DNA of 32,000 bases from assembly GCA_942493095.1 (NCBI GenBank), contig OW818675.1, positions 390,001-422,000 on the forward strand, read 5' to 3'. The translations under genes were made by a program, and so were the position numbers. This document shows, in pieces, positions 7,290 to 31,203 of the stretch (the first letter of the stretch is position 1; each line of letters begins with the position of its first letter). This stretch comes from Candidatus Electronema halotolerans. GTDB taxonomy: Bacteria; Desulfobacterota; Desulfobulbia; Desulfobulbales; Desulfobulbaceae. Under the pieces are notes generated by a model that made no database searches, had not been told where the DNA came from, and was given only the letters and a program-made list of their open reading frames with translations.

Positions 7290-7811
7290 ATGACTTCAGT
7301 CAGGGAACTGCTTGTCCGGCACAAGGCCGCTGCGGTTGGCATTGGGCTGGCTGTGCTGCTGATCAGTTGGCTTGCTTGGTATTTTTCCGACCGGCAGGTC
7401 ATCAAGCGGCAGTTGGTGGCAATGGCTTGGGATATCAGCCGTGAGCCGCAGGAAAGCACAATGGAGACCGCGATTAAGATGCGCGATGTCAAGGCCGTGC
7501 TGGCTCCTCAATGCCGGGTCACTGTGCCGGAGACGCATTTGGATGAGAACTTTGAGCGGGACATGGGCATCATGTATCTGATGAACTACCGCAGCCGCTA
7601 TGAGATGCTGGCTCCTTCCTTTGAGGAAATGGCAATCGACTTTCCAGCCGACAACGAGGCGGCAGTGCGGGCGACCGTGCTCCTCAAACGGCAGAAACAG
7701 CAGGGCCAGCCGACAGAGACATCTGCTCCGGTCAAGCTGACCCTACAAAAAACAGACGGCGACTGGCTGCTGAATCACGCGGAACTCGCCGCCGCCCTGT
7801 TGGACGACTAA
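7290..7811 (+). CDS. hypothetical membrane-anchored protein (173 aa)
   Basis: ORF with an N-terminal hydrophobic helix (AAAVGIGLAVLLISWLAWYF). Its stop overlaps the stop of the convergent cvpA-like gene. No family was recognised. Confidence 0.5.
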   Translation: MTSVRELLVRHKAAAVGIGLAVLLISWLAWYFSDRQVIKRQLVAMAWDISREPQESTMETAIKMRDVKAVLAPQCRVTVPETHLDENFERDMGIMYLMNYRSRYEMLAPSFEEMAIDFPADNEAAVRATVLLKRQKQQGQPTETSAPVKLTLQKTDGDWLLNHAELAAALLDD

Positions 7812-11847: not shown

Positions 11848-13137
11848 ATGAGCGACCTGAAAAAGATGTACAGCACCATCCTCGGCGATTCTTTTCCGAT
11901 GGAGATGACCATTTCCTTTGGCGATCAGACCTTAGTCTATCGCAAGCGGACTTGGGCGATTCCGCAGGAGGACGGCACGGTTGATGAGCGCGGCCTGCGC
12001 TACGGCGAAAACCCGGATCAGGAGGCGGCCCTGTACGAATTGGTCAACGGCAACCTCGCGCTGGGCGACTGCAAGTTTATTGAGCCGGGCAAAGGCTTGG
12101 TCAGCGGCATCAAGGTGGAGGACATGCTCCAAGTGGGCAAGCATCCGGGCAAGATCAACCTGACCGACGTTGACAACGGCCTGAACATCATCAAGTATTT
12201 GACAGACAAACCCGCAGCGGTGATTCTCAAGCACAACAATCCTTGCGGCGCGGCCCTTGGCGCAAATTTGGCTGATGCCTACAACCGGGCCAACCGGGCG
12301 GACCGAATTGCCGCTTTTGGCGGGGCTGTGATTGTCAACCGGGCCTTGGACAAGGAAACCGCCGAGCTGATGAGCCGGAACTACTTGGAGGTGGTCTGCG
12401 CCCCGGAATTCGAGGACGGCACCTTGGAGATTCTTGCCAAGGCCAAGAATCTGCGGGTCATCCGCATGGACGGCATAGCCCGTTTGGCAGAGTTTGAGAA
12501 ATACCGCTTTGTCGATTTCAAATCGCTGATTGACGGCGGCATCATTGTCCAGCAGTCAGCAGTCAACTCCATCCGCTCTGCCGCTGATCTGAAACCGGCG
12601 GTTGCCACGTGGAAAGGCCAGGAATACCGCTGCGAGCGGCAGCCCACGCAGCAGGAGCTGGATGATATGATTTTTGGCTGGGCCGTGGAGCATGGCGTGA
12701 CCTCCAACTCAGTCATTTACGTCAAGAACGGCTGCACAGTCGGCATTGGCACCGGCGAGCAGGACCGGGTCGGGGTGGCCGAGATAGCGGTTTCTAAAGC
12801 ATACATAAAATATGCGGACATCACCTGCTTTGACCGCTTCGGCATTCCTTATGCGGATTTGGCCTTGGAAGTGGCGCAGGGCAAACGTGATGCGGCGGAC
12901 AAGGAGAAAATTGATGCGCAGGTGAAGGCGGACAAGGCCGGGCTGCCCGGTTCAGTGATGATCTCCGATGCCTTTTTCCCCTTCCGCGATGCGGCGGACG
13001 TGGGCATCCGCGAGGGAGTCGGAGCTATTCTTCAGGCAGGCGGCTCCATGCGGGATTATGCGTCCATCGAAGCCTGCAACGAGGCTGATCCGCAGGTGGC
13101 CATGATGTTCACCGGCCAACGCTCATTCAAGCATTGA
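11848..13137 (+). CDS. purH: AICAR formyltransferase-domain protein (PurH-like, lacking the N-terminal MGS/IMP cyclohydrolase domain)
   Basis: Motifs LRYGENPDQ, ILKHNNPCGAA, GTGEQDRV and SDAFFPFRD are PurH AICARFT-domain signatures. Only about 50 aa precede the RYGENP motif. AAGGAG lies upstream of the ATG. Confidence 0.8.
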   Translation: MSDLKKMYSTILGDSFPMEMTISFGDQTLVYRKRTWAIPQEDGTVDERGLRYGENPDQEAALYELVNGNLALGDCKFIEPGKGLVSGIKVEDMLQVGKHPGKINLTDVDNGLNIIKYLTDKPAAVILKHNNPCGAALGANLADAYNRANRADRIAAFGGAVIVNRALDKETAELMSRNYLEVVCAPEFEDGTLEILAKAKNLRVIRMDGIARLAEFEKYRFVDFKSLIDGGIIVQQSAVNSIRSAADLKPAVATWKGQEYRCERQPTQQELDDMIFGWAVEHGVTSNSVIYVKNGCTVGIGTGEQDRVGVAEIAVSKAYIKYADITCFDRFGIPYADLALEVAQGKRDAADKEKIDAQVKADKAGLPGSVMISDAFFPFRDAADVGIREGVGAILQAGGSMRDYASIEACNEADPQVAMMFTGQRSFKH

Positions 13138-15606: not shown

Positions 15607-15845
15607 GGTTCTCTCTCCTGCGACCGGATTGCCTTGTGCGGATTTAACGTCTCTCCCAAGCATAGCTTTTTTGACCTGTTGAAGCCAAACAATTTTCATG
15701 GTCTGTTGACTTGCTTGAATTCGCATGCACGTCCTGCTTGCTTTCCAGCCGAAATCTGATTACGTTCTGCTTCAGCGCGTTGTGCGGCAATGCTGGATGC
15801 GCGCTCCTCCTGCTTGCACGTATAACTTGAATCCACAAGAAAAAC

Positions 15846-17505: not shown

Positions 17506-17602
17506 GGATAGACAACACGTTGTAATCTTTCTGTCTATCTTGCAACGATTGCATGGTTAATAGAACCATAGAGCTTTTTGTTAGGGCAAGAAGACCATCA
17601 GC

Positions 17603-18145
17603 ATGAGCCATGATTGGAGGAGAAAAAAAGCCAGGTTCAAGGTACCAAGTGATAAAACACTAGGAATTGTCGTTCTTGGGGCGGTAGCAGTCGTAGCCGC
17701 GTTCACAATCCTCGGCAAAAGAATAGCCAAAGAACCTATTAGCGAAAGTTCTCAAATGTCCCATACCATAAGGGTGATCGACGGAGACACTATTGAATTA
17801 TCATCTGAGAAGCTGAGGCTATTCGGGATGGATGCACCAGAAAAAGGCCAACCATGCAAAAGGAACAATGCCCCCTATGATTGCGGCACTGCTTCTAAAG
17901 AGCATTTAGAATTCTTGCTTACAGGAGCAAAAGTTGAATGCACCAAGAAGAAGAAAGATAAATGGGGAAGATATATTGCCTTGTGCTCTGCGGATGGTGA
18001 AGATGTCAGTCGACTAATGGTACGACATGGATGGGCTATAGCTTATAGAGAATATTCAACTTCTTATGTTGAAGATGAGGAATTTGCTAAATCTAATAGG
18101 CTTGGAATGTGGTCAAAGCAATTTGCCGTTCCATCCGAATGGTGA
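17603..18145 (+). CDS. membrane-anchored thermonuclease (staphylococcal nuclease, SNase) family protein
   Basis: IRVIDGDTIEL...LRLFGMDAPEKGQ...DKWGRYIALC...MVRHGWAIAY carries the SNase Ca/catalytic residues (DGDT Asp, R, D-x-x-E, GRY Arg). The N-terminus is RRKKARFK followed by a hydrophobic helix (LGIVVLGAVAVVAAFTIL). Confidence 0.8.
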   Translation: MSHDWRRKKARFKVPSDKTLGIVVLGAVAVVAAFTILGKRIAKEPISESSQMSHTIRVIDGDTIELSSEKLRLFGMDAPEKGQPCKRNNAPYDCGTASKEHLEFLLTGAKVECTKKKKDKWGRYIALCSADGEDVSRLMVRHGWAIAYREYSTSYVEDEEFAKSNRLGMWSKQFAVPSEW

Positions 18146-18168
18146 AAATCTGATAACGGTGACAAATT

Positions 18169-18612
18169 ATGAGCGAAAATAGCGACGATAAGAACCTCAC
18201 TAAACCATATAGCGGTGTTCCTACGCAGATAAACCTTGGCCCAAGCACGTCCATGGATTTGTCGTGGCTCCCGGAAAACGAGCGGAAAGCCCTTTTGATC
18301 GACTATACAAAGGGTATGATGGATATCAGCCAAAAAGCGCAAGAGCTTCACGTTGATGCTGCTGTCTTGAAAAGAACCCTCGATGACCTATCAGATACTA
18401 CTCGGGAAGTCTCTGATAGTGGAAATGTTGTAACGATAACGCACTCTCAAACGACGAAAGTCGGACGTACAGAAATAATGATGGGGAATAGTGAGCAGGC
18501 CCAAAGTGGAAAATTATCGAAAAGCCAAACCGGGGGAAAGGATTGGACTCCCTACTATATATTTGGCGGCATCTTAGCCTTAATTATTATTGCTGCTTTA
18601 ATGAAGGGCTAA
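18169..18612 (+). CDS. hypothetical tail-anchored protein (147 aa)
   Basis: ORF 23 nt after the nuclease gene. It has a single C-terminal hydrophobic helix (YYIFGGILALIIIAALM). No family was recognised. Confidence 0.55.
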   Translation: MSENSDDKNLTKPYSGVPTQINLGPSTSMDLSWLPENERKALLIDYTKGMMDISQKAQELHVDAAVLKRTLDDLSDTTREVSDSGNVVTITHSQTTKVGRTEIMMGNSEQAQSGKLSKSQTGGKDWTPYYIFGGILALIIIAALMKG

Positions 18613-18613
18613 T

Positions 18614-18913
18614 ATGAAGCCTGTCAAGGTGTATGTTTCGGATGACATCGCCGTGGATTCCGCAATCGAGTATTTGCAAAGCCACATCCCGGATGATGTT
18701 AGAAACTCTCAGGAGTACGGCTTCATATTTCCTGAAATAAAATCATGCATCGAGGAGTTTTCACAAAAAGCAAAGAAATTGGCTAACGCCGGAACAACTA
18801 TCCACATAGACAAAGAATATAAAGTTGCCGGATCAAAAATACTCGTCGTCCTTGAATACCCAAGGAAGAAAGGACTCTTTGAAAGAATTGCAGGGATTCT
18901 TAGAAGAGGATAA
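18614..18913 (+). CDS. hypothetical soluble protein (99 aa)
   Basis: ORF starts 1 nt after the previous stop, and AAGGG lies upstream. No family was recognised. Confidence 0.55.
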   Translation: MKPVKVYVSDDIAVDSAIEYLQSHIPDDVRNSQEYGFIFPEIKSCIEEFSQKAKKLANAGTTIHIDKEYKVAGSKILVVLEYPRKKGLFERIAGILRRG

Positions 18914-18915
18914 AC

Positions 18916-19728
18916 ATGAGTCGATATAGAGGAAATCGATATCGATCCTATAATAGAAGATCGGTAGGACACGAAAGGGCTTTAGAACACATCCGCGAAG
19001 CAGAAGCCCTGTCTAGAGAATTAGGCGGCACGGACCAAGATGTTAAGAACTATTTCTTTTCTCTTTCTTCTGCCCAACTGAGAGCGATCTTCGATAAGTA
19101 CGAATCTCAATACGGTAACTCAGCAAGGGAATATGCTGAGAAAACTCTTCCAAGTTGGAAAAGCGGACGAGTTCATATGAGCGGAATGGTTGCGGAAAGA
19201 CTTTTCAACCTACTGCCACCTGTCATGCTAATCGAGGCAAAATTCCAGTTAACTGAAAGTTTGTGGAAACACGTTGGTCCATCTTCTAACAAAAAATTTT
19301 ATGTTGGAGTCGATGTTAATCTTGAAGATATTTCCAGTCGAGTAAAATCACACTTAGAAGAAGTGGTTACGCATTATCAAATACCAAGCTCAATGGAGGC
19401 AAGGTTCAACTGGCTTTCGCAAGGTGATGTCACTGTAAAACAACAACTACTAAATCATTTTCGCCAACAAGAGAAGGTGCTGCTATCAGAAGCACTTCGA
19501 ACTCAATTGCCGGTATTAATAAATCACTTGAATAGCGAAAAAGGAAGTCTTACAACACACGCAGCCCAAGTCCTTAAGGTAGGGAAACATGAGGTTCAAG
19601 TAGTTGTAACTGAGGGCATCAATGGAGTATCCGAAACAGCACCTGTAAGGATTTCTGAATCAAGCGATTACAGTTGGATATGGTGGGTAGTCGGAATTGT
19701 TTTTGTTTTGTGGCTACTGAGCAAGTAG
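18916..19728 (+). CDS. hypothetical tail-anchored protein (270 aa) with an Arg-rich N-terminus
   Basis: ORF starts 2 nt after the previous stop, with AGAGGA upstream. The C-terminal helix is YSWIWWVVGIVFVLWLL. No family was recognised. Confidence 0.55.
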   Translation: MSRYRGNRYRSYNRRSVGHERALEHIREAEALSRELGGTDQDVKNYFFSLSSAQLRAIFDKYESQYGNSAREYAEKTLPSWKSGRVHMSGMVAERLFNLLPPVMLIEAKFQLTESLWKHVGPSSNKKFYVGVDVNLEDISSRVKSHLEEVVTHYQIPSSMEARFNWLSQGDVTVKQQLLNHFRQQEKVLLSEALRTQLPVLINHLNSEKGSLTTHAAQVLKVGKHEVQVVVTEGINGVSETAPVRISESSDYSWIWWVVGIVFVLWLLSK

Positions 19729-19828
19729 CAGTGGATGCGATGAATAGCCCTAACAATCGCATGCACTCGGACAGCAAAAAGCACCGTTCTCGGTTTCACC
19801 TTTAAGCAGTGCTGTAGCTTCTGCCAAC

Positions 19829-20170
19829 ATGGCAGGCTTACCTTTTTTGATTCAGGCAAAGACTCCAGTCTATGCAACTTTAGTTGCATGTATTGTTGGT
19901 TTTATATTTATTTCCATTGGATTGTGCTGGAAACAGGTCATTAAATGGGCGTACAGAGGAACAGCATTACCTGAAAATATAAATCCTAATTTCGCCGAGA
20001 GTATCGACCAACGAATTTGGCGTTTCATTCAAAGATCAGCATACCCAGCGTTTGTTCTTCTCGGAGTTTCTTTGCCAGCAAAATTTTATTTAGACGCACA
20101 TCCTTTTGCAGAAGAAACACGTGGATTCAACTCGCAAGTGCAACTTTTTTTGGTTATCCAAAAAGCATAG
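19829..20170 (+). CDS. possible small membrane protein (113 aa) whose 3' end is supplied by the MITE-like element
   Basis: Two hydrophobic segments are present. No clear RBS was seen. The last 16 codons lie inside the inverted repeat that starts at 20121. Confidence 0.3.
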   Translation: MAGLPFLIQAKTPVYATLVACIVGFIFISIGLCWKQVIKWAYRGTALPENINPNFAESIDQRIWRFIQRSAYPAFVLLGVSLPAKFYLDAHPFAEETRGFNSQVQLFLVIQKA

Positions 20171-20306
20171 GTTGGCTGGCACTTTGAATACTTCATGTAA
20201 ATTTTCAATTATTTTCTCTTAGTTAGCGACAAAAGCAAAGTTGTGACACTCCCGTAACTGCCTTTTCTTGCAACCAAAAAAAGTTGCACTTGGAACTTGA
20301 ATTCAC
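20121..20306. repeat. MITE-like element 1 (186 bp) with 35-bp terminal inverted repeats starting GTGGATTCAA
   Basis: 20121-20155 (gtggattcaactcgcaagtgcaactttttttggtt) pairs with the reverse complement of 20272-20306 at 31 of 35 positions. It sits exactly at the low-GC to high-GC transition. Confidence 0.55.
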
Positions 20307-20323
20307 CTCGGAGTGCCAAAAAT

Positions 20324-20512
20324 ATGTCGCAAACCAACCTTCTCACCACCTCCACCAATCTGCAAAAGGCTGTTGCGTGGATCAGCGAGACCATGCAGCA
20401 GCACCCGGACAAGCAACGCGCCAAGGTGATGACCGCAGCAGAGCTGCGCTTTGACCTCACCCCTGCGGAATGCGAGTTTCTCCGCCGTCATTTTCACCAG
20501 ACGGACCGCTGA
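20324..20512 (+). CDS. small hypothetical protein (62 aa), translationally coupled to recD2
   Basis: The ATG at 20324 follows GGAG. Its stop TGA (20510-20512) lies 3 nt before the helicase ATG at 20516. GC content is host-like. Confidence 0.45.
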   Translation: MSQTNLLTTSTNLQKAVAWISETMQQHPDKQRAKVMTAAELRFDLTPAECEFLRRHFHQTDR

Positions 20513-20515
20513 CTG

Positions 20516-23038
20516 ATGCTTCCACCTCTGCCCTCTTCGCAGCTCCCGCCGGAAACCCTCAGCGGCGTGATTGAGCGCATCACCTACCACAGCCCGGAAA
20601 ACGGCTGGACAGTGCTGCGGGTCAATCCCTTTGATTCGCGAGGCGGCACGGCCACGGTGATTGTCCATCAGGTTCGAGTCTTTGCCGGGGCAACCATGCA
20701 GTTCAGCGGCGAATGGGTTGTGCATCCCCGCTTTGGCCGCCAGTTCAAGGCCAAGCAGGCTGCGGAGCTGAAACCGGCCTCAGCAGGCGCGCTGGAAAAA
20801 TACCTCGGCTCCGGCCTGATCAAGGGTGTCGGCCCCAAGACGGCCCGCAAGATTGTTGAGCATTTCGGCAAGGATACGTTGGAGGTCTTTGAGGAGCGGA
20901 TTGAGCAACTCACTGACGTGCCCGGCATTGCCGAGAAAAAGCTGAACATGATCAGCACGGCCTGGACAGAGCACCGCGCCATCCGCGACGTGATGCTCTT
21001 CCTTCAGACGCACGGCATCTCCACCCTCTTCGCGGTGCGCATCTACAAGCAGTACGGCGACGAGTCGATTGCCATTGTCTCGGCCAATCCCTACCGCTTG
21101 GCTGAAGATTTCTACGGCATCGGCTTTTTCTCGGCGGACAAAGTGGCTCTGTCCATCGGCTTTGGGCAGGACTCGCCTTTGCGCATCACTGCCGCCATCC
21201 GCCATGTCCTCAATACCAGCCGGGAGCAGGGCCATTGCTGGCTGACCCAGGCCCAGATTGACAAGCAAGTTGCCGAGCTGCTGCAACTCAATCTCTCCGA
21301 CCGCATCGCCCTGTTTCTCCACGAAATGGAGCAGCAGGACAAGCTGCGCGTCCGCCTGCTGGTCACGCGCAAGGGCCGGGAGGCGGAACGCTGCTACTAC
21401 TCGAAGAGCCTGTATTATGACGAGAAGTACGTGGCCGAGCGGCTGCGGGCTATGGTGCGGCCTTTGCCGCATAGTGTTGAACGGATTACCGATTGGCTGC
21501 GGCGTGCTGGAGAAACGACAAGTTTTCAGCTTGCGGCAGAACAGGCCTCGGCAATTTTGACCATAGCCTGCTGTCAGTTCGCCATTCTCACCGGCGGGCC
21601 GGGCTGCGGCAAGACCACGACCACGCGGGTCTTGGTTGCCCTGCTGCGGGCTATGGGCCGCTCAGTGACGCTGGCTGCGCCCACAGGCCGGGCTGCCCAG
21701 CGCATGGGCGAGGTCATCGGCTTGGAGGCCAAAACCATCCACCGTTTGCTGGAGTTTCAGGGCACGGGCTTCAAGCGCAACGAGGACAATCCCCTCAAGA
21801 CGGATGTCTTGATTGTTGATGAATGCTCGATGCTTGACATCAGCCTGACTGCGGCCCTGCTCAAGGCGGTCAGCAAGGACACAGCCTTGGTCTTTATCGG
21901 CGACGCGGATCAGCTCCCCTCGGTCGGGGCAGGCAATGTGCTGCGTGATTTGATCGCGTCGGGCAGCATTCCGGTCTGCACTTTGAACACCATTTTCCGG
22001 CAGGCGAGCCGCTCCAGCATCATCACTTTTGCCCATCAGATCAACTGCGGCGAAACGCCCAAGGTCGGCTCACCCTTCAAGCATCCTGAGCTGTGGAAGA
22101 GCAACGACTGCCTGTTCATTGATTCCGACGAGGCGACCCAAGCCCAGCTCGGTTTCATTGCCAAGGCCCGGCAGCATTTTCAGACGGTCGAGGAGCGCGA
22201 GCAGGCCGGGACTGAAGACCCGTTCAGCTTTGAGGCGGAAACGATCAGCAGTCCGTATCAGCGTTTTGAGCTGCCGGAGCAGTTCCAGCATGTTGACTTG
22301 CAGAGCTTGGCCGTGGCGGAAGGCCCGGCGGCGGAGCTGTCCGCAGTGGTGAAAAAGGTCCATCCGTGGTCATCGCTCTATTACGGCCTGACGGCGGCGG
22401 ACACGGTGCGGCGGCTTTATACGGAATGGATTCCCAAATACTGCGGCAAGGACTGCGAGATTCAGGTGCTTTCGCCCATGAACCGGGGCAGTCTCGGCAC
22501 AGGCGCGCTCAACAAGATGCTGCAAGAGGCGGTCAATCCACCGCAGGAAGGGCGGGCCGAAATCAGGCTCGGCGGCGAGCGGCTTTTCCGCACCGGCGAC
22601 CGGGTCATTCATCGGCGCAACAACTATGATCTCGGCGTGTTCAACGGCGACATCGGCAGGATTATCGAGGTGAACAACGCGGATTTGACCCTGCGCGTCC
22701 GCTTCTTCCCGGATCAGCGTGAGGTCGAGTATCAGCGCGAGCAGCTTACGGAATTGGAACTGGCCTACGCGATCACCATTCACAAGGCGCAGGGTTCAGA
22801 GTTTGAGGCGGTGATTCTGCCGGTGCTGACCCAGCATTTTCGGATGCTCTTCCACAACCTGCTCTACACCGGTCTGACGCGGGCACGGAAGCTGGCGGTG
22901 TTCGTCGGCACGAGGAAGGCGTTGACGATGGCGGTGAAGAATCGGGATACGGGGCTGCGGCAGACGGCGTTAAGGGAGTTGGTGGGAGGAAACGCTGTGG
23001 ATTCAAATTGCATAGGAGTTACGCAGTTGGCTTTATAA
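20516..23038 (+). CDS. recD2: RecD2-type (RecD-like) SF1 ATP-dependent DNA helicase, full length
   Basis: N-terminal LSGVIERITYHSPENGWTVLRV, helix-hairpin-helix GSGLIKGVGPKTARKIV, Walker A LTGGPGCGKTT, DECSML, IGDADQLPSVGAGNVL and TIHKAQGSEF. The last 16 codons (NAVDSNCIGVTQLAL) are encoded by MITE-like element 2. Confidence 0.9.
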   Translation: MLPPLPSSQLPPETLSGVIERITYHSPENGWTVLRVNPFDSRGGTATVIVHQVRVFAGATMQFSGEWVVHPRFGRQFKAKQAAELKPASAGALEKYLGSGLIKGVGPKTARKIVEHFGKDTLEVFEERIEQLTDVPGIAEKKLNMISTAWTEHRAIRDVMLFLQTHGISTLFAVRIYKQYGDESIAIVSANPYRLAEDFYGIGFFSADKVALSIGFGQDSPLRITAAIRHVLNTSREQGHCWLTQAQIDKQVAELLQLNLSDRIALFLHEMEQQDKLRVRLLVTRKGREAERCYYSKSLYYDEKYVAERLRAMVRPLPHSVERITDWLRRAGETTSFQLAAEQASAILTIACCQFAILTGGPGCGKTTTTRVLVALLRAMGRSVTLAAPTGRAAQRMGEVIGLEAKTIHRLLEFQGTGFKRNEDNPLKTDVLIVDECSMLDISLTAALLKAVSKDTALVFIGDADQLPSVGAGNVLRDLIASGSIPVCTLNTIFRQASRSSIITFAHQINCGETPKVGSPFKHPELWKSNDCLFIDSDEATQAQLGFIAKARQHFQTVEEREQAGTEDPFSFEAETISSPYQRFELPEQFQHVDLQSLAVAEGPAAELSAVVKKVHPWSSLYYGLTAADTVRRLYTEWIPKYCGKDCEIQVLSPMNRGSLGTGALNKMLQEAVNPPQEGRAEIRLGGERLFRTGDRVIHRRNNYDLGVFNGDIGRIIEVNNADLTLRVRFFPDQREVEYQREQLTELELAYAITIHKAQGSEFEAVILPVLTQHFRMLFHNLLYTGLTRARKLAVFVGTRKALTMAVKNRDTGLRQTALRELVGGNAVDSNCIGVTQLAL

Positions 23039-23151
23039 CTCGTTGATTTTGTTCAACTGGCAGTTTATGCGGCCAAGGGTCAACTTGCTGTAATAATTGA
23101 ACTCCTATTTTCAACTGCGTAAGTCCTATTGCATTTACAACTTGAATCCAC
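22997..23151. repeat. MITE-like element 2 (155 bp) with imperfect 33/40-nt terminal inverted repeats starting GTGGATTCAA
   Basis: Left arm is gtggattcaaattgcataggagttacgcagttg. The reverse complement of the right arm is gtggattcaagttgtaaatgcaataggacttacgcagttg. The arms share a 10-nt terminal block and an 11-nt internal block. The element is followed by TTTTTT. Confidence 0.5.
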
Positions 23152-23158
23152 GAATTTT

Positions 23159-24457
23159 TTAGAGGCTGTAAGTTAACGACAGCACGCTATTGAAACTATC
23201 CTCAGAAAAGCTCGCGCCAATATCCACCTTGATATCTTTGTTCCAGTTTACACCACCACCTAATGTATAATACATTTGATCAGAATCAATTGCCTGAAAA
23301 CCATCATGATCCGGGATGCGGAAGAGACCAGCCCGAATTTGACAATTCAAGCTGTTAGAAACAATAAAGGTCTTTTCCGTGCCGAAACGGAGAATTACAC
23401 CGTCGTCTATTTCCTCATCCAGCGTATTGCCACTCGTGCTGGCATCTGCCAACGCGGAATATCCCACCCAATCTGCCTGCGCGGTTAGCAGCCAGTTTGG
23501 AACAGGATACCACGCCACACCAACACTCCAGATGTCTGGAGTGTCAAAAATGGCCTGCAAGTTTTCGATGGCATCATCGCAGCTACTCAGGGAGCATGTG
23601 GTTTCTACACTGCTGTAATCAATGCTGAATGAACTGCCTTTGCGGTATGAAAGAGCGGCAGAAATATCAGAAGCCGGTTTGAACAGCATTCCTAAGCTGA
23701 AGCTAAAGTCATTGTCGTTACCGTCAATTATGCCGCCATAGCTGATCGAGCTGTCATGAACACTGCCGGTATAGGTGTTCGTCGTCCACATTTCACGCAA
23801 ATTAGTGTTCAGTGTTTCCAAACTGACCGCAGCACCGAAAGAAAACAGCTCGCTATAGTTGAAAGCAGCAGCTATTCCATAACTCCTCTTTCGATATTCC
23901 TCAATGTTTTTTTCAGAAATATTCTCTTGCAGAAGATTTAAGGTGCTATCGAATACCGGCTCCGGCCCGGAGTTTTGATTGTCGCTGCCAGTGAAAGCCG
24001 AACTGCGATAATAGACAGAGGCGGTTAGCTTTCCGGGAACGACTTGCATCGCCGCACCAGCAAAAGAAAGATCGGCAATGCTGTCATCAAAGGTTCTGAA
24101 CTCATCCAGATCAGGTCCCAAACCGATATTGTTGACTGAAGCATAGGTGTCCATGTAATCTTTTTCATAGGACGAATAGCTAATATCGACTGCAAGCTGC
24201 ATATCTCGCAATGCAGACAGGCCTGCCGGATTCAGAGCCGAAGCCCGCACGTCATCAGCAACAGCTAACGCTGCTCCACCCATGGCGAGATATTTGCCAC
24301 CTGTAACTTCAGAAGGTTCTAAGTCAAAAGGCAGATGGAGTGCCCAATAGCCATTGCTGCTGAGACCATGAGGGTTGCCCCATGCCACACTGCTCAGACA
24401 AAATGAAGCTGTAATGGCGCTCAACAGAATCATTTTCACCTTTACACATGGAGACAT
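23159..24457 (-). CDS. outer-membrane beta-barrel protein, possibly FadL/TodX-like
   Basis: Signal peptide (ILLSAITASFCLSSVAWG). The block YLAMGGAALAVADDVRASALNPAGLSAL resembles the N-terminal FadL-family motif. Alternating beta-strand patterns run to the C-terminus. GGGAGG lies 7-8 nt before the ATG. Confidence 0.55.
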   Translation of the reverse strand: MSPCVKVKMILLSAITASFCLSSVAWGNPHGLSSNGYWALHLPFDLEPSEVTGGKYLAMGGAALAVADDVRASALNPAGLSALRDMQLAVDISYSSYEKDYMDTYASVNNIGLGPDLDEFRTFDDSIADLSFAGAAMQVVPGKLTASVYYRSSAFTGSDNQNSGPEPVFDSTLNLLQENISEKNIEEYRKRSYGIAAAFNYSELFSFGAAVSLETLNTNLREMWTTNTYTGSVHDSSISYGGIIDGNDNDFSFSLGMLFKPASDISAALSYRKGSSFSIDYSSVETTCSLSSCDDAIENLQAIFDTPDIWSVGVAWYPVPNWLLTAQADWVGYSALADASTSGNTLDEEIDDGVILRFGTEKTFIVSNSLNCQIRAGLFRIPDHDGFQAIDSDQMYYTLGGGVNWNKDIKVDIGASFSEDSFNSVLSLTYSL

Positions 24458-24466
24458 CTTTCTTTC

Positions 24467-24507
24467 CTCCCTTTTTATAAAAAGGGAGAGACAAAATTAT
24501 CTCTCCC
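24467..24507 (-). promoter_or_regulatory. overlapping hairpins at the OMP ribosome-binding site (terminator-like stem plus a 22-bp perfect palindrome)
   Basis: On the minus strand GGGAGAGA-uaauuuug-UCUCUCCC-UUUUUA forms a terminator-like stem. The 22-bp palindrome CTCCCTTTTTATAAAAAGGGAG (24467-24488) shares the CUCCC arm with that stem and includes the SD purines. Confidence 0.35.
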
Positions 24508-24671
24508 CGGGCTGATATAACGGTTGCACGAAAAATGGCAATCAGTTTGATATGGCGACCATCATATAAACTCATTTGCTTTATATAATTAAACTCCTTA
24601 ACAAAGCAGAGATGTCTGATAGCCGTTCACCACATAACCGCTATAGTTCCGACATAGATCACGCCTTGGAA

Positions 24672-25256
24672 TTATTTCCGATCATACGCACAGCATCCAT
24701 TCTTGCTGGCCGGATAGAAAGATTCAAAGTTTTGACCTTTGGCGTACTGCGAACAGCGTTGGCCACTTTTGCTGACAAAGGTGGATTCACAGCTCATCCG
24801 GTAGGACTCGCCGCAGACAATATTTGGCCTGTCGGTCATTTTTTCAAATGATGCCGTGCTACCTATCGCCTCGGACACTGCACAGAAAATTTCTGCTGAC
24901 CATTCGCCGGACGCATTACCTATCATGCTGCACTCGTCAGTACATTTATTAACGATGTCATCTAACGAGCTGTTCAAGCCTGCAATGTATCCGTTACCAA
25001 AGTCCACTGCCATCTTCCCTGTAAACCTTCTGTTTTTTATATCACGAACAACTCGATCTACAGCATCGCCGACAATCTGCACCAAGTTGTCCGCTCTGTG
25101 GCAATCTTGGCCGAGGTTATTCCATGCAGCGGAAACAAGTTTAGATGAAGTCCGCTTCGCCATGTTGTAGAAACCGCTCTGGGCTGCGGCATTTTTCGCA
25201 TACCCATTCAACAACAGGAGAGATGATGCGAATAGAACTAACATTAGTTTTTTCAT
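24672..25256 (-). CDS. secreted Cys-rich hypothetical protein (194 aa, 9 Cys)
   Basis: Signal peptide MKKLMLVLFASSLLLLNGYAKNAAA and an RBS-like AGAGGAAAAG upstream. Low GC. No family was recognised. Confidence 0.55.
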   Translation of the reverse strand: MKKLMLVLFASSLLLLNGYAKNAAAQSGFYNMAKRTSSKLVSAAWNNLGQDCHRADNLVQIVGDAVDRVVRDIKNRRFTGKMAVDFGNGYIAGLNSSLDDIVNKCTDECSMIGNASGEWSAEIFCAVSEAIGSTASFEKMTDRPNIVCGESYRMSCESTFVSKSGQRCSQYAKGQNFESFYPASKNGCCAYDRK

Positions 25257-25299
25257 ACGCTTTTCCTCTTTTTTGGTGATTGATGGTCTCTATTTGCCT

Positions 25300-25857
25300 T
25301 TACTCAGCACAGATTTTGCTGAATTTCGATACGGGAAAATTATAACTGAAGGCCGTGGAAAAGCTTCCCCGAACCTTGCTTTTGCAATCAATGCTGCATA
25401 CTTGGTATGGGTATGAAATATTTAAAACCATATCAACGATTTGAGTGATAGTAATATTCCACGACCCTAACTGAACTTCGCATTCATGAATGAACGGCAC
25501 AATGGTGCTGACGATAAAACTCTCCTCCATGCAGCTAACGCTGTTTTCTTGGTTGATACGGTCAATTTCGTCATAGTAAGAATGGATCAGCGTTGGCAGG
25601 AAATCGTTCAGGATGACATCGCTCGAATAACTGCGCTGTATCGAACGTAGCGAGCGGGTCAGAATCTTTGGCATGTGCTCGTCGCGAATGGTTTTCCACG
25701 GGATACCATTCGCTTTCAAGTTTTTGTAGATAGTACGCACCGATGCTTTGGCGAGCTTATCAGCCACTTCGCGAGCATCTCCTGTTTGTGAATACGCCAC
25801 GCTAGGCACAACGAGAAACAAGCCAAACAGCAGAATAATTAGTTCTTTCTTATTCAT
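25300..25857 (-). CDS. secreted hypothetical protein (185 aa, 5 Cys)
   Basis: Signal peptide MNKKELIILLFGLFLVVPSVAYS and GGAGGA upstream of the ATG. Low GC. No family was recognised. Confidence 0.55.
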   Translation of the reverse strand: MNKKELIILLFGLFLVVPSVAYSQTGDAREVADKLAKASVRTIYKNLKANGIPWKTIRDEHMPKILTRSLRSIQRSYSSDVILNDFLPTLIHSYYDEIDRINQENSVSCMEESFIVSTIVPFIHECEVQLGSWNITITQIVDMVLNISYPYQVCSIDCKSKVRGSFSTAFSYNFPVSKFSKICAE

Positions 25858-25973: not shown

Positions 25974-26343
25974 ATTAAATTTTACGCAGCGGAACCGCCA
26001 CCGTGATCGTATAGCGGTTTCAGGTTGTATGGTTATCAGAAAAAGATTAAACTTGACTTGTCTGTTTTTTCCATTTTTTCACACACGGAGGTCTGCCATG
26101 ATTTATTCTATTGATTTCAGAAAGAAAGTCTTGTCTGTTTATGAAAAACAGAAATCATTGAGAAGAACTGCAGATTTGCTTGACGTTTCCTATAAATTTG
26201 TTCAAAGTCTTGTAAAAAGATGGAAGACTGAGGGGACGATTGAGCCGAAGCCTCATAAAGGCGGAAATCCTCCGAAAATCAAGGAAGTTCATATTCCTTT
26301 TCTGACCAGCATGATTGATGACGAGAACGATCTTACGCTTGAA

Positions 26344-27648
26344 GGGAACCTCGAAAAATTCGAGATAAAGCTTTTTCAGCTTATCAATAGTGTCTTTGAC
26401 AGTTGAAAACTTCAAATACATAAATTGTTATTTCCTGTTTTTTATTTATTTTGAGCAAACTTCTGTTGAAATATGTTCCTGAATGCGTTTCTTTTTTTTA
26501 AATCTTAAATTTTATTAAGAGTTCCGTACCTGTCAATATTGAACGTCAAGTTTCTCAAGCCTATTTTCGCAGCAGCGCGAATGAAACCTGTTCCTCGGAG
26601 AATCATATTGCCAGCACGTTGCGCCTGGATGCCGAAGACGTGTTCAATCCGGGAGCGAATTTTTGATCTTGTCCGATTTCCCTGCTTCTCCCATTCGGTC
26701 AGTTTCCGGCTTCGTGTTCCTTTGCGGTTCAGATGCTCTCTGTATCCATTCTCGTTCAACCAGTTGAGCTTTTTTTCAGATCTGTATGCCGAATCCGCAT
26801 AGATATCCCGACTGGTGTTGTCAGGGTCAAGCAGCTCCTCAAAAATATTGCTGTCATGAACCTCGGCACTGGTCACCGCATATTTTCGGATGAATTTATG
26901 CTTCACATCAACAGATATATGATTTTTATAACCAAAAAAGCTTCTGCCGTTCTTTTTGGTCCAACGGGCATCAGTATCCTTCTGCGCCTGCTTATTTTCA
27001 CTCCATCCTTCAGGCTGTTCACCATTCTTGATCTGCTTGTTTTCCTTGCGGCTGTTACGCTGGATCGGGGCGTTGACTATGGAAGCGTCGACTATCTGCC
27101 CTTTTCTGGCTTGATATCCATTTTCATCAAGAAATTTGTCAAAAACAGAAAACAGTTCCTCGATTTTTCCTGCTTTGGTCAAAGTTTCACGAAAAAGCCA
27201 TATCGTTGTCGCATCTGGAACTTTGTCAGCCGCCCGAAGTCCAAGGAATCTGGAAAACGAATATCTGTCAAGAATTTGATATTCCATCCCTTTATCAGAA
27301 AGATTGTATAATGATTGCAAAATTAAAATTTTGAACATCATGACTGAATCATAACCTTTAGCTCCAGCATTTGATTTCACAGGCTTTCTTTTTGCTTCTT
27401 CAAGAATTGGCCGAAATATTTCCCAGTCAATAGCCTTGTTGATCTTAACTAAAGGATCACCTGCTTTGTCAATTCGGGAAAGACGAATATAAAAATCAAA
27501 AAATCCAAGTTGGTTCATCTGTGCATCTCCGGCAGCATGAGTTGAATTGATGCCGAAATTATAACATAATAGACTGAAATTTCAATATTAAAATAAAAAA
27601 TAACAAAACAAATGCAGCAGAATGGATGTTGTATTTTTCGAGGAACCC
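26344..27648 (-). mobile_element. IS5-family insertion sequence (1305 bp) nested in the IS630 transposase gene
   Basis: Inverted repeats GGGAACCTCGAAAAAT (26344-26359) and ATTTTTCGAGGAACCC (27633-27648) match at 14 of 16 positions. They are flanked by a TGAA direct repeat (26340-26343 and 27649-27652). Removing the element restores the IS630 reading frame. Confidence 0.85.
26505..27518 (-). CDS. IS5-family DDE transposase (337 aa)
   Basis: DRYSFSRFLGL...VPDATTIWLFRE, IVDASIVNAP, FGYKNHISVD, EVHDS, IYADSAYRS, SRIEHVFG and the LRNLTFN tail match the InsH/IS5 pattern. Confidence 0.9.
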   Translation of the reverse strand: MNQLGFFDFYIRLSRIDKAGDPLVKINKAIDWEIFRPILEEAKRKPVKSNAGAKGYDSVMMFKILILQSLYNLSDKGMEYQILDRYSFSRFLGLRAADKVPDATTIWLFRETLTKAGKIEELFSVFDKFLDENGYQARKGQIVDASIVNAPIQRNSRKENKQIKNGEQPEGWSENKQAQKDTDARWTKKNGRSFFGYKNHISVDVKHKFIRKYAVTSAEVHDSNIFEELLDPDNTSRDIYADSAYRSEKKLNWLNENGYREHLNRKGTRSRKLTEWEKQGNRTRSKIRSRIEHVFGIQAQRAGNMILRGTGFIRAAAKIGLRNLTFNIDRYGTLNKI

Positions 27649-28377
27649 TGAAGAGATGTGTGATCGCTTATACGAGAAATTCAATTTAAAAATAGCACCT
27701 TCCACGCTGTGCGAAACTCTCGCCAGACTGAAAATCAGCCGGAAAAAAAAACTTTCCGCGATCCGGCGGCGTATAAAGAAGAAAATATAGCAAAGACAGT
27801 TAATTACCTTGCAGGCCTGATCGAGGCTGACAAAAAGAATTTCATCTTTATTGATGAGACAGGATGCTGTTTGAACATGTCGAGAAAATTTGCAAGATCA
27901 AGAAAAGGAACAAGAGCTTTTTCAAAAAGACCTTCAGGTAAAGGGAAAAGAATAAGCATGATAGGAGCTGTAAAGTTTGGAAAAATATTGAAGTGCATGA
28001 AATTTAAAGGAACCATGACAGGAGATGTCTTTTATTTCTATATAAAAAATTATCTTTTGAAATATCTTGACAGCAGTAAGACAGTCGTTCTTGACAATGC
28101 CAGTCCTCATAAAAACAAAGAAGCTCTCGCTTTGATCAGAAGTACAGGAGCGAAGATCATTTTCCTCCCTCCTTATCGTCCTGAACTGAACCCTATTGAA
28201 TACTGCTGGTCAGTAATGAAAAACACTATAAGAAAATTGAAGCCGAGAACAGAGCGTGAGCTGATGGAAGCTTATGATATATCTCTGAAAACGGTTAAGT
28301 CAAAATCAATCAAATCGTTTTTCCGTCATTGCTGGGTTTGATATCTGTTCAATACGAAACCGCTATACGTCAGGTTT

Positions 28378-30387
28378 GTGTCTTGGCCGGGCCGGGGCCA
28401 CCTCTCCACCCTGTTCGCGGTGCGCATCTACAAGCAGTATGGCGATGAATCCATTGCCCTTGTCTCGGCCAATCCCTATCGTCTGGCCGAAGATTTCTAC
28501 GGCATCGGCTTTTTCTCGGCAGACAAGGTGGCCCTGTCCATTGGTTTCAGCCAAGATTCGTCTCTGCGCATCACTGCCGCCATCCGCCACGTCCTCAACG
28601 CCAGCCGGGAACAGGGGCATTGCTGGCTGACCCAGGCCCAGATTGACAAGCAAGTATCCGAGCTGCTGCAACTGAGTCTTTCTGACCGCATCGCCCTGTT
28701 TCTCCACGAAATGGAGCAGCAGGACAAGCTGCGTGTCCGCCTGCTGGTCACGCGCAAGGGCCGGGAGGCGGAACGCTGCTACTACTCGAAGAGCCTGTAT
28801 TATGACGAGAAGTACGTGGCCGAGCGGCTGCGGGCTATGGTGCGGCCTTTGCCGCATAGTGTTGAACGGATTACCGATTGGCTGCGGCGTGCTGGAGAAA
28901 CGACAAGTTTTCAGCTTGCGGCAGAACAGGCCTCGGCAATTTTGACCATAGCCTGCTGTCAGTTCGCCATTCTCACCGGCGGGCCGGGCTGCGGCAAGAC
29001 CACGACCACGCGGGTCTTGGTCGCCCTGCTGCGGGCTATGGGCCGCTCAGTGACGCTGGCTGCGCCCACAGGCCGGGCCGCGCAGCGCATGGGCGAGGTC
29101 ATCGGCTTGGAGGCCAAGACCATCCACCGTTTGCTGGAGTTCCAAGGCACAGGCTTCAAGCGCAACGAGGACAATCCCCTCAAGACGGATGTCCTGATTG
29201 TTGATGAATGCTCAATGCTTGACATCAGCCTGACAGCGGCCCTGCTCAAGGCGGTCAGCAAGGAAACAGCCTTGGTCTTTATCGGCGATGCGGATCAGCT
29301 CCCTTCGGTCGGGGCAGGCAATGTGCTGCGTGATCTGATCGCATCCGGCAGCATTCCAGTCTGCACTTTGAACACCATTTTCCGCCAGGCGAGCCGCTCC
29401 AGCATCATCACCTTTGCCCACCAGATCAATCAAGGCGAAACGCCCAAGGTCGGCTCGCCGTTCAAGCATCCTGAGCTGTGGAAGAGCAACGACTGCCTGT
29501 TCATTGATTCCGACGAGGCGACGCAGGCCCAGCTCGGTTTCATCGCCAAGGCCCGGCAGCATTTTCAGACGGTCGAAGAGCGCGAGCAGGCCGGGACAGA
29601 AGACCCGTTCAGCTTTGAGGCTGAAACGATTAGCAGTCCGTATCAGCGTTTTGAGCTGCCAGAGCAGTTTCAGCATGTCAATCTGCACAGCTTGGCGGTT
29701 GCCGAAGGCCCGGTAGAAGAGCTGGCCGCAGTGGTGAAAAAGGTGCATCCTTGGTCATCGCTCTACTACGGCCTGACAGCGGCGGACACGGTGCGGCGGC
29801 TTTATACGGAATGGATTCCCAAATATTGCGGCAAGGACTGCGAAATTCAGGTGCTCTCGCCCATGAACCGGGGCAGTCTCGGCACAGGCGCGCTCAACAA
29901 GATGCTGCAAGAGGCGGTCAATCCACCGCAGGAAGGGCGGGCCGAAATCAGGCTCGGCGGCGAGCGGCTTTTCCGCACCGGCGACCGGGTCATTCATCGG
30001 CGCAACAACTATGATCTCGGCGTGTTCAACGGCGACATCGGCAGGATTATCGAGGTGAACAACGCGGATTTGACCCTGCGCGTCCGCTTCTTCCCGGATC
30101 AGCGTGAGGTCGAGTATCAGCGCGAGCAGCTTACGGAATTGGAACTGGCCTACGCGATCACCATTCACAAGGCGCAGGGTTCAGAGTTTGAGGCGGTGAT
30201 TCTGCCGGTGCTGACCCAGCATTTTCGGATGCTCTTCCACAACCTGCTCTACACCGGTCTGACGCGGGCACGGAAGCTGGCGGTGTTCGTCGGCACGAGG
30301 AAGGCGTTGACGATGGCGGTGAAGAATCGGGATACGGGGCTGCGGCAGACGGCGTTAAGGGACTTGGTGGGCGGAGAGGATTGCTGA
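28378..30387 (+). pseudogene. recD2: 5'-truncated second copy of the RecD2-type helicase (lacks about 167 N-terminal codons; helicase core intact)
   Basis: Colinear with 21018-22990 at a constant 7,385-bp offset, with no indels. Homology begins about 34 bp from the IS630 right end. The frame is open from a GTG at 28378, and all helicase motifs are retained. Confidence 0.7.
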
Positions 30388-30405: not shown

Positions 30406-30796
30406 TCACCAGATGCGCTGCAAGCCAGCATACTCATCAAAGGCTTGATCTCTGCTCAGAAGCGGCATGTTCTCCGCCAAACTTTGCGCGATGAGCAGGC
30501 GGTCAAACGGGTCTTTGTGATGAAACGGCATTGATCTGACAAAGTCCAGATGCTTCGGCTGCACAGGCAGCAGTTTCATCGCATTACCCCTGACATGCGT
30601 CTCAACCAAGTCCGGGAAGGAGAAGTTCAGCTTCAGTTTGCCCATGCTGGCCTTGATGGACATTTCCCAGAGGCTGGGCGATGCTGATCAGCCGTTCGTT
30701 GCGGATATCTTCGATGAGCTGCCGCGCCGGGCCGCTCAGATTCGGATTGCCGCCGATGAACCAGAGAAAAGTGTGCGTGTCCAGCAGAAGCTTTAT
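30406..30796 (-). pseudogene. vapC: PIN-domain VapC-type toxin gene, frameshifted and lacking an ATG start
   Basis: The C-terminal frame gives SLWEMSIKASMGKLKL...HHKDPFDRLLIAQSLAENMPLLSRDQAFDEY. The N-terminal part (I)KLLLDTHTFLWFIGGNPNLSGPARQLIEDIRNERLISIA is in another frame. The span is 391 nt, one more than a multiple of 3, and the shift lies near 30673-30680. The first codon is ATA. Confidence 0.6.
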
Positions 30797-31017
30797 GGCA
30801 TGTAGTCCTCGAAATCATCAAGTGGCGCATCAAAATCATCCGCCATTTCAATCAGTCCAGCGGCACTGCCGAATTTCGGGCGCGGCAGGACAGGAAACGG
30901 CACGAGTTTGAATCCTGAGCCGTCATCCTTTGTGATGATGACTTCTTCGCCAGCGGCTGCCATTACAATCAGCTTGGCAAGCATGGTCTCCGCTGCTTTC
31001 AACGCGACTTGGGGCAT
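30793..31017 (-). CDS. type II antitoxin, Phd/YefM-like (74 aa)
   Basis: GEEVIITKDDGSGFKLVPF and the C-terminal RPKFGSAAGLIEMADDFDAPLDDFEDYM resemble antitoxins paired with PIN toxins. The stop overlaps the vapC 5' end. Confidence 0.55.
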   Translation of the reverse strand: MPQVALKAAETMLAKLIVMAAAGEEVIITKDDGSGFKLVPFPVLPRPKFGSAAGLIEMADDFDAPLDDFEDYMP

Positions 31018-31143
31018 GTCAGCCTCCTGCTGTTGACAGCAACCAATGTTGTTTTTTGCTCCTGCTTGAATTTTCAGGAGAACGCTTTCAGCATAGCATG
31101 TTCAGGCGGGCAATGCAACGAGCTGAACGACTGGCCTTTCTCT

Positions 31144-31203
31144 GTCGGCACGAGGAAAGCCTTGGCAATGGCGGTCAAGAATCTAATCACGATCTGGCGG
31201 CAG
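31144..31203 (+). pseudogene. short relic of a recD2 3' end (third copy)
   Basis: 31144-31182 (gtcggcacgaggaaagccttggcaatggcggtcaagaat) matches 30289-30327 and 22904-22942 at 34 of 39 positions. It translates to VGTRKALAMAVKN, against VGTRKALTMAVKN in the helicases. Confidence 0.55.

Follow-up and report, generated by a model that had tools for sequence, protein, structure and literature searches.

Probable IS30-family relics at the junctions of unrelated chromosome segments around a recD2 helicase gene in the cable bacterium Candidatus Electronema halotolerans

In the stretch of DNA that we have analysed (32,000 nt, hereafter the window), which comes from the cable bacterium Candidatus Electronema halotolerans, a small open reading frame (ORF) and a full-length recD2 helicase gene are bracketed by two short elements with the same termini, which raises the question of whether the helicase segment was brought in as a unit between these elements, or whether the elements mark points at which the chromosome has been recombined. 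Insertion sequences abound in cable-bacterial genomes (PMC10030654), and MITEs are recognised recombination hot spots (PMC10969869). The preliminary description of the locus left both explanations standing, and its basic geometry holds: the two elements, E1 (20121-20306) and E2 (22997-23151), have the coordinates and the termini that were described, the terminal inverted repeats (TIRs) of E1 match at 31/35 positions, and a high-GC segment (0.60-0.61 over 20501-23000) lies between two low-GC blocks (0.41-0.47 on either side). In our reading, which we consider likely, E1 and the outer shell of E2 represent non-autonomous relics of the IS30 family, situated at the junctions of three unrelated chromosome segments: a block with rfbBC and an SNase-like gene, a native operon of the small ORF and recD2, and a conserved FadL cluster.

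The terminus that the elements share, GTGGATTCAA...TTGAATCCAC, represents a terminal inverted repeat of the IS30 family of insertion sequences: an IS30-family transposase adjoins this terminus (NF033563, with 221 bits where the cut-off is 80), and the coding sequences of full-length IS30 transposases stop 9 nt short of the terminus, their stop codon falling inside AACTTGAATCCAC. A genome scan with the consensus end has returned at least 117 stretches, and among the matches listed most are located at a distance of 30-140 nt from the end of a contig, as is characteristic of an insertion sequence with many copies; Desulfobulbaceae S01.Bin068 accounts for at least 12 of the contigs, contigs of Ca. 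Electronema JC and KV are also among them, and in all three of these genomes contig-end copies occur that carry N- and C-terminal coding sequence of the transposase. The autonomous insertion sequence with these termini that had been anticipated is represented, to judge from these sequences, by autonomous partners in related genomes, i.e. outside E. halotolerans. An IS30-type family was active, or still is, in Candidatus Electronema as well as in related Desulfobulbaceae. The same type of terminal repeat is found in many other phyla, where short elements (68-340 nt) with the same inverted repeats (IRs) are also present. A search with a 43-aa C-terminal peptide returned a single 32-aa fragment annotated as IS30 family and no full-length cable-bacterial transposase, and searches of the literature with the TIR strings found nothing relevant.

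The terminal repeat is homologous to that of IS30 from E. coli (TGTAGATTCAATCTGTCAATGCAAC, compared with xGTGGATTCAAGTTCCAAGTGCAAC here), and in both cases the C-terminus of the transposase, ...VAL(T/G)(D/T)*, runs into the right inverted repeat (IRR), with the stop codon placed within the IR. Both systems produce short target-site duplications (TSDs), of 2 bp in IS30 and of 3 bp in the present subgroup, where the duplication lies one base outside GTGG/CCAC; this 3-bp TSD is found in 14 of the 20 credible IS30-type pairs, which were classified by hand from 44 pairs detected by script (15 of the 44 with a TSD). In contrast to IS30, E1 and the E2 shell lack a transposase gene (no ORF in either has a family match), both are without a TSD, and the E2 shell measures only 34 nt. 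IS30 is known for insertion targeted to inverted repeats, and it promotes deletions, inversions and fusions.

E1 and E2 are accompanied by further traces of the family. With at most one mismatch, the terminal 10-mer occurs eight times in the window, where 2.4 occurrences are expected, and none of 100 shuffles reached eight. A third IS30 relic (15622-15836), which ends 9 nt before the ATG of rfbB, has its right IR at 15814-15836 and a degenerate left IR, and keeps remnants of the N- and C-terminal codons of the transposase; a 14-nt stub of an IS30-type IR is located at 2091-2104. No strand is assigned to this relic, to E1 or to the parts of E2. As three start codons are preceded, at 9-18 nt, by AACTTGAATCCAC, an outward promoter in the IR was considered and rejected: the motif consists of the final part of the IS30 transposase gene together with the IR, and a promoter with this spacing would have its -10 box on the ATG; a promoter scan was empty.

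E1 is an IS30-family-derived element of 186 nt, with 35-nt arms (20121-20155 and 20272-20306) that are 89% complementary and match the IRR of cable-bacterial IS30 copies; by the family rule, it probably extends one base further on each side. To its left lies low-GC block A (17519-20120, plus strand), which comprises an SNase-like nuclease gene and four ORFs of no assigned function. A reading of this block as a defence system was examined with Pfam and PADLOC and rejected, a weak SNase-domain match being all that was obtained. Block A is contiguous with rfbC in independent assemblies (contigs L121, L122, L123 and L124, 99.4-100% identical). One of these, L121, comes from another sample and represents the allele without E1: it is 99.8% identical to the window over 17519-20120, its homology stops exactly at 20120, and it diverges at the first base of E1. 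There, the ORF that E1 interrupts is intact and encodes a 120-aa membrane protein ending in ...AEETLKLSGGSLVIVILAWFAPLWIQE*, whereas in the window the truncated gene forms a chimeric ORF of 113 aa (19829-20170, plus strand), whose last 16 codons (RGFNSQVQLFLVIQKA*) are supplied by E1, as had been proposed. An exact-protein look-up of the chimeric product returned no contig. Beyond the breakpoint, block A runs on into other genes in L121, with a 384-aa ORF and a DUF1641 gene, and this continuation follows neither E1 nor E2 and occurs nowhere else in the window. Among the 129 loci compared, there is no further copy of the interior of E1.

E2 begins with GTGGATTCAA and ends with TTGAATCCAC, and the term "MITE-like" that was used for both elements is right in kind, given their IS30-family IRs, but E2 proves to be a nested pair of two unrelated elements, i.e. 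a 34-nt IS30-type shell that is split by a 116-nt MITE of another family, which we refer to as MITE-X. The left part of the shell (22997-23012) consists of GTGGATTCAA, followed by A and by TTGCA, the left TSD copy of the inner MITE; it holds only 10-16 nt of IR-like sequence. The right part (23129-23151) is a solo IS30-type IR, TTGCATTTACAACTTGAATCCAC, which opens with the 5 nt of the right-hand TSD copy, and it matches the left IR of cable-bacterial and Bdellovibrionales IS30 copies at 22 of 24 positions. MITE-X itself (23013-23128) is delimited by the TIRs TAGGAGTTACGCAGTTG and CAACTGCGTAAGTCCTA, and its 5-bp duplication, TTGCA at 23008-23012 and 23129-23133, is perfect and sits at the offset that is typical of its family. 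The family features, i.e. conserved 17-nt TIRs, a length of approximately 100-130 nt and a 5-bp TSD, are all present; a homologue in locus L046 (79%) has no IS30 termini, a metagenome scan has returned at least 120 stretches, and among the matches listed the 5-bp TSD accompanies 60 of 108 distinct copies (0.87 expected). In the metagenome loci, solo TIRs of MITE-X are not followed by a transposase that could be its autonomous partner.

Between the two elements, the 62-aa ORF (20324-20512, plus strand) starts with an ATG 17 nt after the end of E1 and has no family match; its homologue in L002, a locus from a related Electronema genome, shares 77% of the amino acids, while on the contig of P0002 a 66-aa ORF occupies the same position and is a candidate counterpart. 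It is followed by recD2 copy 1 (20516-23038, plus strand, 840 aa), which is full length, contains all RecD2 domains in Pfam and is 95% identical to P0001. A second copy (28403-30387, plus strand) is truncated at the 5' side and keeps its native 3' end; it is presumably a pseudogene. The two copies align over 21018-22990 and 28403-30375 with 95.4% identity, and the homology ends 6 nt before E2, in agreement with the limit of about 22990 that had been described. The final codons of copy 1 are replaced, its end being ...LVGGNAVDSNCIGVTQLAL instead of the native ...LVGGEDC; the tail had been attributed wholly to the element, and the E2 sequence does supply it, except for the 6 nt that precede E2. 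Finally, an internal remnant of the recD2 3' region, 53 nt long, which stops short of the 3' end of the gene, is located at 31131-31183 on the plus strand.

On the right, a FadL-like outer-membrane gene and the two genes upstream of it (194 aa and 185 aa) occupy 23159-25857 on the minus strand. The order [185 aa][194 aa][FadL] is, by comparison with relatives, conserved core synteny in cable bacteria and not a foreign island; the homology to the relatives, which are without E2, extends as far as the stop codon of FadL, at 7 nt from E2. The next junction is formed by an IS630-family element (26008-28369, plus strand), which is interrupted by an IS5-family element with its transposase gene at 26505-27518 on the minus strand. 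The two low-GC blocks are unrelated to each other, and since the right block is conserved core synteny, while the left block continues into other genes in L121, the idea of a single low-GC island that was split by the helicase module has to be abandoned.

Could the module still have moved as a whole? In a composite-transposon-like event, an IS30-family transposase acting in trans on the outer ends of E1 and E2 would have moved the 3-kb unit of the small ORF and recD2, and several features agree with this: the left end of E1 (GTGG...) and the right end of E2 (...CCAC) are inverted, point outward in the correct orientation and match IS30 IRs; the two inner junctions of the module are also insertion-sequence ends; the ORF that is cut by E1 is cut exactly at the E1 terminus; MITE-flanked segments are known to be mobilisable (PMC10969869); and transposition followed by a later loss of flanks is compatible with the inverted outer ends. 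Against it, under the 3-bp family rule there is no TSD around the E1..E2 unit (ACA against AAT), just as there is none at E1 (ACA against TCG) or at E2 (CGC against AAT), and the empty site does not match, as the DNA that follows the insertion point of E1 in L121 does not follow E2. The left end of E2, moreover, carries no more than 10-16 nt of IR-like sequence, and the presence of the 5'-truncated recD2 copy with its native 3' flank 5.4 kb downstream, in direct orientation, points to local duplication or rearrangement, and not to import. The small-ORF and recD2 pair also recurs in the related Electronema genome (L002) and has a host-like GC content, contrary to an imported module. We therefore regard mobilisation as a unit as unlikely: the helicase segment is native DNA that remains between two rearrangement scars and is not composite-transposon cargo, and of the two original explanations it is recombination junctions, with the exact L121 breakpoint at E1 and without TSDs, that the data favour.

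An assembly artefact, in which a long-read metagenome assembly would have fused unrelated segments at short shared repeats, seems to us less probable still. The window belongs to a closed, metagenome-assembled genome of 3.2 Mb (Sereika et al. 2023; PMC10030654), contigs built from short reads are interrupted within E1, E2 and the IS630 IR, and exact-protein look-ups of recD2 copy 1 and of the 62-aa ORF (both start variants) returned no contig, so that the two inner junctions, from the right of E1 through the small ORF and recD2 to the left of E2, lack support from an independent assembly. Nevertheless, the shared repeat of approximately 25-35 nt is much shorter than anything that could mislead long reads; of the four junctions, two (block A/E1 and E2/FadL) recur, at 99.4-100% identity, in contigs that were assembled from short reads of other runs (L120, L122 and L123); and L001, a locus from a related genome, contains the same kind of tandem partial recD2 copies. 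The least probable account, to which we give hardly any credence, treats the inverted repeats as functional structures that are conserved in place and not mobile, for instance as RNA hairpins or terminators of transcription: both are predicted to fold into long, stable hairpins (E2 over 155 nt, z = -7.6, followed by GAAUUUUUU in a non-canonical terminator form between the convergent recD2 and FadL genes; E1, z = -4.8), but E1 is missing from the orthologous site in the 99.8%-identical strain, E2 is absent from the recD2 3' ends in L001 and from the FadL relatives, IS30 IRs form the termini and a MITE with a TSD forms the core, Rfam gives no match in 19900-23400, and a terminator scan is empty at E1 and E2; any terminator activity would be a by-product.

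The best reading of the elements is accordingly that they are scars of insertion-sequence-mediated rearrangement in a mosaic region, to which the truncated recD2 copy and the 53-nt remnant also belong. In the history that we propose, IS30-type elements would first have inserted into the chromosome, one of them cutting the 120-aa ORF and another one landing 4 codons before the recD2 stop; deletions, inversions or translocations, which may have proceeded by homologous recombination between dispersed copies (the partner copies in the source genome are ones that we infer) or by intramolecular events of the IS30 type, would then have exchanged one flank of each element, leaving flanks without a target duplication; lastly, the MITE of the other family would have inserted into the E2 relic and given rise to the TTGCA duplication.

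The recD2 copies may have had a part of their own in these events. In two genomes, that of the window and that of L001, a full-length recD2 precedes copies that are truncated at the 5' side, at differing points; the native 3' end is kept in copy 2 of the window and in the second L001 copy, while the third L001 copy runs past the edge of the locus. The DNA between the copies consists of the FadL cluster and insertion sequences in the window, and of toxin-antitoxin and caspase-like genes in L001. The window copies are mosaics, with blocks of 100% identity next to blocks of 88-90%, a divergence as is seen between different species. In Electrothrix (L251), recD2 is accompanied neither by partial copies nor by the small ORF, which indicates that the tandem relics are lineage-specific. 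It is conceivable, although we hold it to be doubtful, that in the E. halotolerans lineage the 3' part of recD2 has repeatedly served as an anchor for recombination; repeated integration of circular DNA in the Campbell manner would agree with this pattern, as would a one-sided, homology-facilitated capture of DNA that bears a recD2 fragment, and if so, the IS30 relics would mark the ends of captured pieces.

Similar behaviour has been described for the Correia elements of Neisseria and for QMITE of Coxiella (PMC10969869), small elements with TIRs that lie between genes or at their 3' ends, form long hairpins, can donate C-terminal codons to ORFs, nest into one another and mark strain-specific rearrangements. 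E1 and the E2 shell share with MITEs the IS30-homologous TIRs, the small size and the missing transposase; a TSD of family length is absent. They also recall the mobilisation units of Acinetobacter integrons, in which a gene segment is likewise enclosed by a pair of short TIR elements, oriented in a way that is compatible with mobilisation (PMC10969869), but E1 and E2 are not copies of each other and have no TSD, and the empty-site comparison contradicts the insertion of a unit.

IS30 relics around recD2 are ordinary for a genome that is filled with insertion sequences; they represent neither a new kind of mobile element nor a new mechanism. They do provide two signatures for annotation: the IR consensus xGTGGATTCAAGTT..A..TGCAAC with a 3-bp TSD, for IS30 relics in genomes that are rich in insertion sequences, and TAGGAGTTACGCAGTTG with a 5-bp TSD, for a very widespread MITE family. 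For the organism, the locus illustrates how insertion-sequence debris reshapes a cable-bacterium chromosome: unrelated gene blocks have been joined, the C-termini of two proteins have been rewritten, and the recD2 operon has been stripped of its native upstream region.

The two inverted-repeat elements, E1 (20121-20306) and E2 (22997-23151), bracket a 62-aa ORF (20324-20512) and the full-length recD2 copy 1 (20516-23038). Upstream of E1 are rfbB and rfbC (to 17461) and the low-GC block A (17519-20120), while downstream of E2, a FadL-like gene (23159-24457), whose product is 100% identical to a protein of the cable bacterium Candidatus Electronema halotolerans, together with two small genes (23159-25857, minus strand), is followed by an IS630-family element that is interrupted by an IS5-family element (26008-28369), the 5'-truncated recD2 copy 2 (28403-30387), a PIN toxin pair (30406-31017, minus strand) and a 53-nt recD2 remnant (31131-31183). 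The sequence statements of the preliminary description are all borne out: the 35-nt arms of E1 match at 31/35 positions, E2 starts with GTGGATTCAA and finishes with TTGAATCCAC, the GC content is 0.60 inside the bracketed segment versus 0.41-0.47 outside, the alignment of the two recD2 copies (21018-22990 with 28403-30375, 95.4%) ends 6 nt short of E2, and E2 supplies the C-terminal tail of recD2 copy 1, as E1 does for the ORF 19829-20170. The 10-mer common to the termini of E1 and E2, counted with one mismatch allowed, occurs 8 times in the window versus 2.4 expected, and 8 was reached in no shuffle.

The terminus of E1 and E2 is the end of an IS30-family insertion sequence. A scan for the consensus of the ends, GTGGATTCAAGTTNNANNTGCAA, with one genome per species, returned at least 117 stretches across many phyla; among the matches listed, most are located 30-140 nt from a contig end, with Desulfobulbaceae S01.Bin068 contributing at least 12 contigs and Ca. 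Electronema JC and KV also represented. Multicopy repeats are places where assemblies break. The transposase that comes after the terminus in a complete Bdellovibrionales chromosome reaches 221 bits with the NCBIfam IS30-family model (cut-off 80), and in several phyla, full-length IS30 transposases stop 9 nt short of the terminus. The cable-bacterial IS30 copies have the transposase start (MMAQF...) at one end and the transposase end (...INNRPRKSLGFNTPKKLFLEACQKVALGT) at the other, with the stop codon within AACTTGAATCCAC; E. coli IS30 has the same architecture, with a visibly homologous inverted repeat (IR), TGTAGATTCAATCTGTCAATGCAAC, and a transposase C-terminus that reads ...GVALTD. An autonomous insertion sequence with the termini of E1 and E2 was sought, and it is present in other genomes, as IS30-family copies with the transposase coding sequence. 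In the end alignment, both arms of E1 resemble the right IR type, and the right end of E2 and a motif at 15814-15836 resemble the left IR type; a third IS30 relic, located at 15622-15836, retains traces of the transposase gene from its start as well as its end. Between this relic and the start codon of rfbB downstream there are 9 nt, and thus, the upstream region of rfbB is IS-derived. At 2091-2104, 18 nt ahead of an ATG (2123), a stretch of 14 nt is identical to the outer IS30 IR (CAACTTGAATCCAC); this may be what is left of another relic, or a site that matches by chance or is target-like. In S01.Bin068 (L024, 4603-4695), an IS30 copy has inserted into a second copy, 70 nt in from the left end of the latter, which is consistent with the known tendency of the IS30 family to insert near its own ends.

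Both bracketing elements had been described as MITE-like; their termini have been confirmed, but E2 is not one element, being a MITE that is nested in an IS30-type shell. The inner 116 nt of E2 (23013-23128), which we refer to as “MITE-X”, have a 79% homologue in S01.Bin068, without IS30 termini. Scanning of metagenomes with the pattern GTTACGCAGTT-N70-98-AACTGCGTAAG returned at least 120 stretches (loci L130-L249), and the 108 distinct copies analysed have a common 17-nt terminal inverted repeat (TAGGAGTTACGCAGTTG / CAACTGCGTAAGTCCTA), unrelated interiors and a length of ~100-130 nt; a perfect 5-bp duplication flanks 60 of these copies, versus 0.87 expected from shuffled partners. In the window, TTGCA occurs on both sides of MITE-X at the family offset (23008-23012 and 23129-23133). 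The MITE-X family is very widespread; searches returned no transposase partner, no Rfam family and no match in the literature on its terminal inverted repeat. What remains of E2 without the MITE and one TTGCA is a 34-nt shell, GTGGATTCAAATTGCATTTACAACTTGAATCCAC, i.e. a 23-nt solo IS30 IR and a 10-nt inverted copy of the IR tip. A 6-nt filler (AACGCT, 22991-22996) is located directly before E2, and a GC-rich 33-nt filler (28370-28402) directly before recD2 copy 2.

The target-site duplication rule of this IS30 subgroup was derived from short and full-length elements of other genomes: the elements start one base outside GTGG and end one base after CCAC, with a 3-bp duplication in 14 of 20 credible pairs (classified by hand from 44 script-detected pairs), where chance is 1/64 per pair. 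Under this 3-bp rule, no duplication was found at E1 (ACA vs TCG), at E2 (CGC vs AAT) or around E1 and E2 as one unit (ACA vs AAT). We regard L121, a contig that comes from another sample and lacks E1, as decisive on the composite unit: it is 99.8% identical to 17519-20120, the homology breaks off precisely where E1 begins, and L121 continues with the intact 120-aa version of ORF 19829-20170, a 384-aa ORF and a DUF1641 gene, a continuation that was found nowhere in the window, including after E2. The left end of E1 is thus a true transposon-end junction, and neither E1 alone nor the stretch from E1 to E2 is a simple insertion into that site; L121 is an E1-free allele, yet not one that matches a unit insertion. 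Given these missing duplications and the missing continuation, the proposal that the helicase module was mobilised as a unit is not borne out.

The module does not split a single low-GC island either, as had been suggested: the right block is conserved cable-bacterial synteny, and the left block is joined to rfbC. The cluster of the 185-aa, 194-aa and FadL genes is conserved in Ca. Electronema aureum and other cable bacteria, preceded in relatives by a KDPG-aldolase gene, and it matches the relatives as far as the stop codon of FadL, which is 7 nt away from E2. Independent assemblies show block A joined to rfbC, and in L121, the block runs into other genes; this low-GC block differs between strains and contains, alongside an SNase-like nuclease, ORFs without a family match (17603-19728; 2742-3896 in L121). 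A homologous 62-aa ORF (77% at the amino-acid level) precedes recD2 in the related Electronema sequence L002, and a 66-aa ORF, whose likeness is one of position alone, precedes it in the P0002 contig; since the small ORF and recD2 are thus paired in relatives and resemble the other genes of the host in GC content, the helicase segment looks native. E1 and E2 are therefore located where native or accessory segments that are unrelated to one another meet, which supports the alternative explanation, that they mark recombination junctions. IS-derived MITEs and their nesting, the donation of C-terminal codons by MITEs, and MITEs as recombination hot spots and brackets of mobilisable segments have already been described (PMC10969869), and E1 and E2 belong to this known class of IS-derived MITEs.

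A composite transposition with a later loss of the flanks is an unlikely history, which would need extra events. An assembly error is unlikely, because the repeat in common is shorter than 35 nt and short-read contigs of independent origin reproduce two of the four junctions, those between block A and E1 and between E2 and FadL; for the two inner junctions, exact-protein look-ups found no contig. Parts of the window are recovered at 99.4-100% identity in short-read contigs from public runs. Conserved terminators, which would agree with the long hairpins into which both E1 and E2 fold and with the U run after the E2 hairpin, are excluded, as conservation at orthologous sites is contradicted by the allele that lacks E1 and by relatives of recD2 and FadL that have no E2, and no Rfam family was found for either element.

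The IS-richness of cable-bacterial genomes is already known (PMC10030654). The IS630-family element of the window, which the IS5-family element interrupts, has its HTH and DDE parts split, and a solo IR of IS630 type is located at 24614-24645, between FadL and the 194-aa gene. A 953-aa protein (4146-7007, minus strand) consists of ~14 RCC1 repeats; its DNA contains near-identical tandem 147-nt units (92-94% identity), and there are 216-nt repeats at 4395-4832.

The closest relatives of the recD2 copies are found in Electronema and Electrothrix. Copy 1 has kept its 5' end and the small ORF and has lost its last 4 codons, while in copy 2 the first ~167 codons are missing and the native end is retained, as is the native DNA downstream. 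Their identity varies block-wise, from 88-90% at 21018-21313, a divergence that equals that of either copy from the recD2 of a sister genome, to 100% at 22510-22910. The sister genome L001 (GCA_976560315.1) carries three recD2 copies in tandem, one of them full and two partial (6189-7510 and 12768-13064), with differing truncation points and with toxin-antitoxin and caspase-like genes located between them; the first two copies finish with ...LVGGE and are not followed by an E2-like element, and the third extends past the edge of the fetched locus. In two related genomes, 5'-truncated recD2 copies and, in the window, the short remnant thus occur in tandem downstream of a full gene, separated by accessory or toxin-antitoxin genes, while recD2 is single-copy in Electrothrix. 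Judged from these gene arrangements, the pattern suggests that, in this lineage, local duplication or capture has happened at recD2 more than once, and this recurrent pile-up of truncated copies is the aspect worth following.
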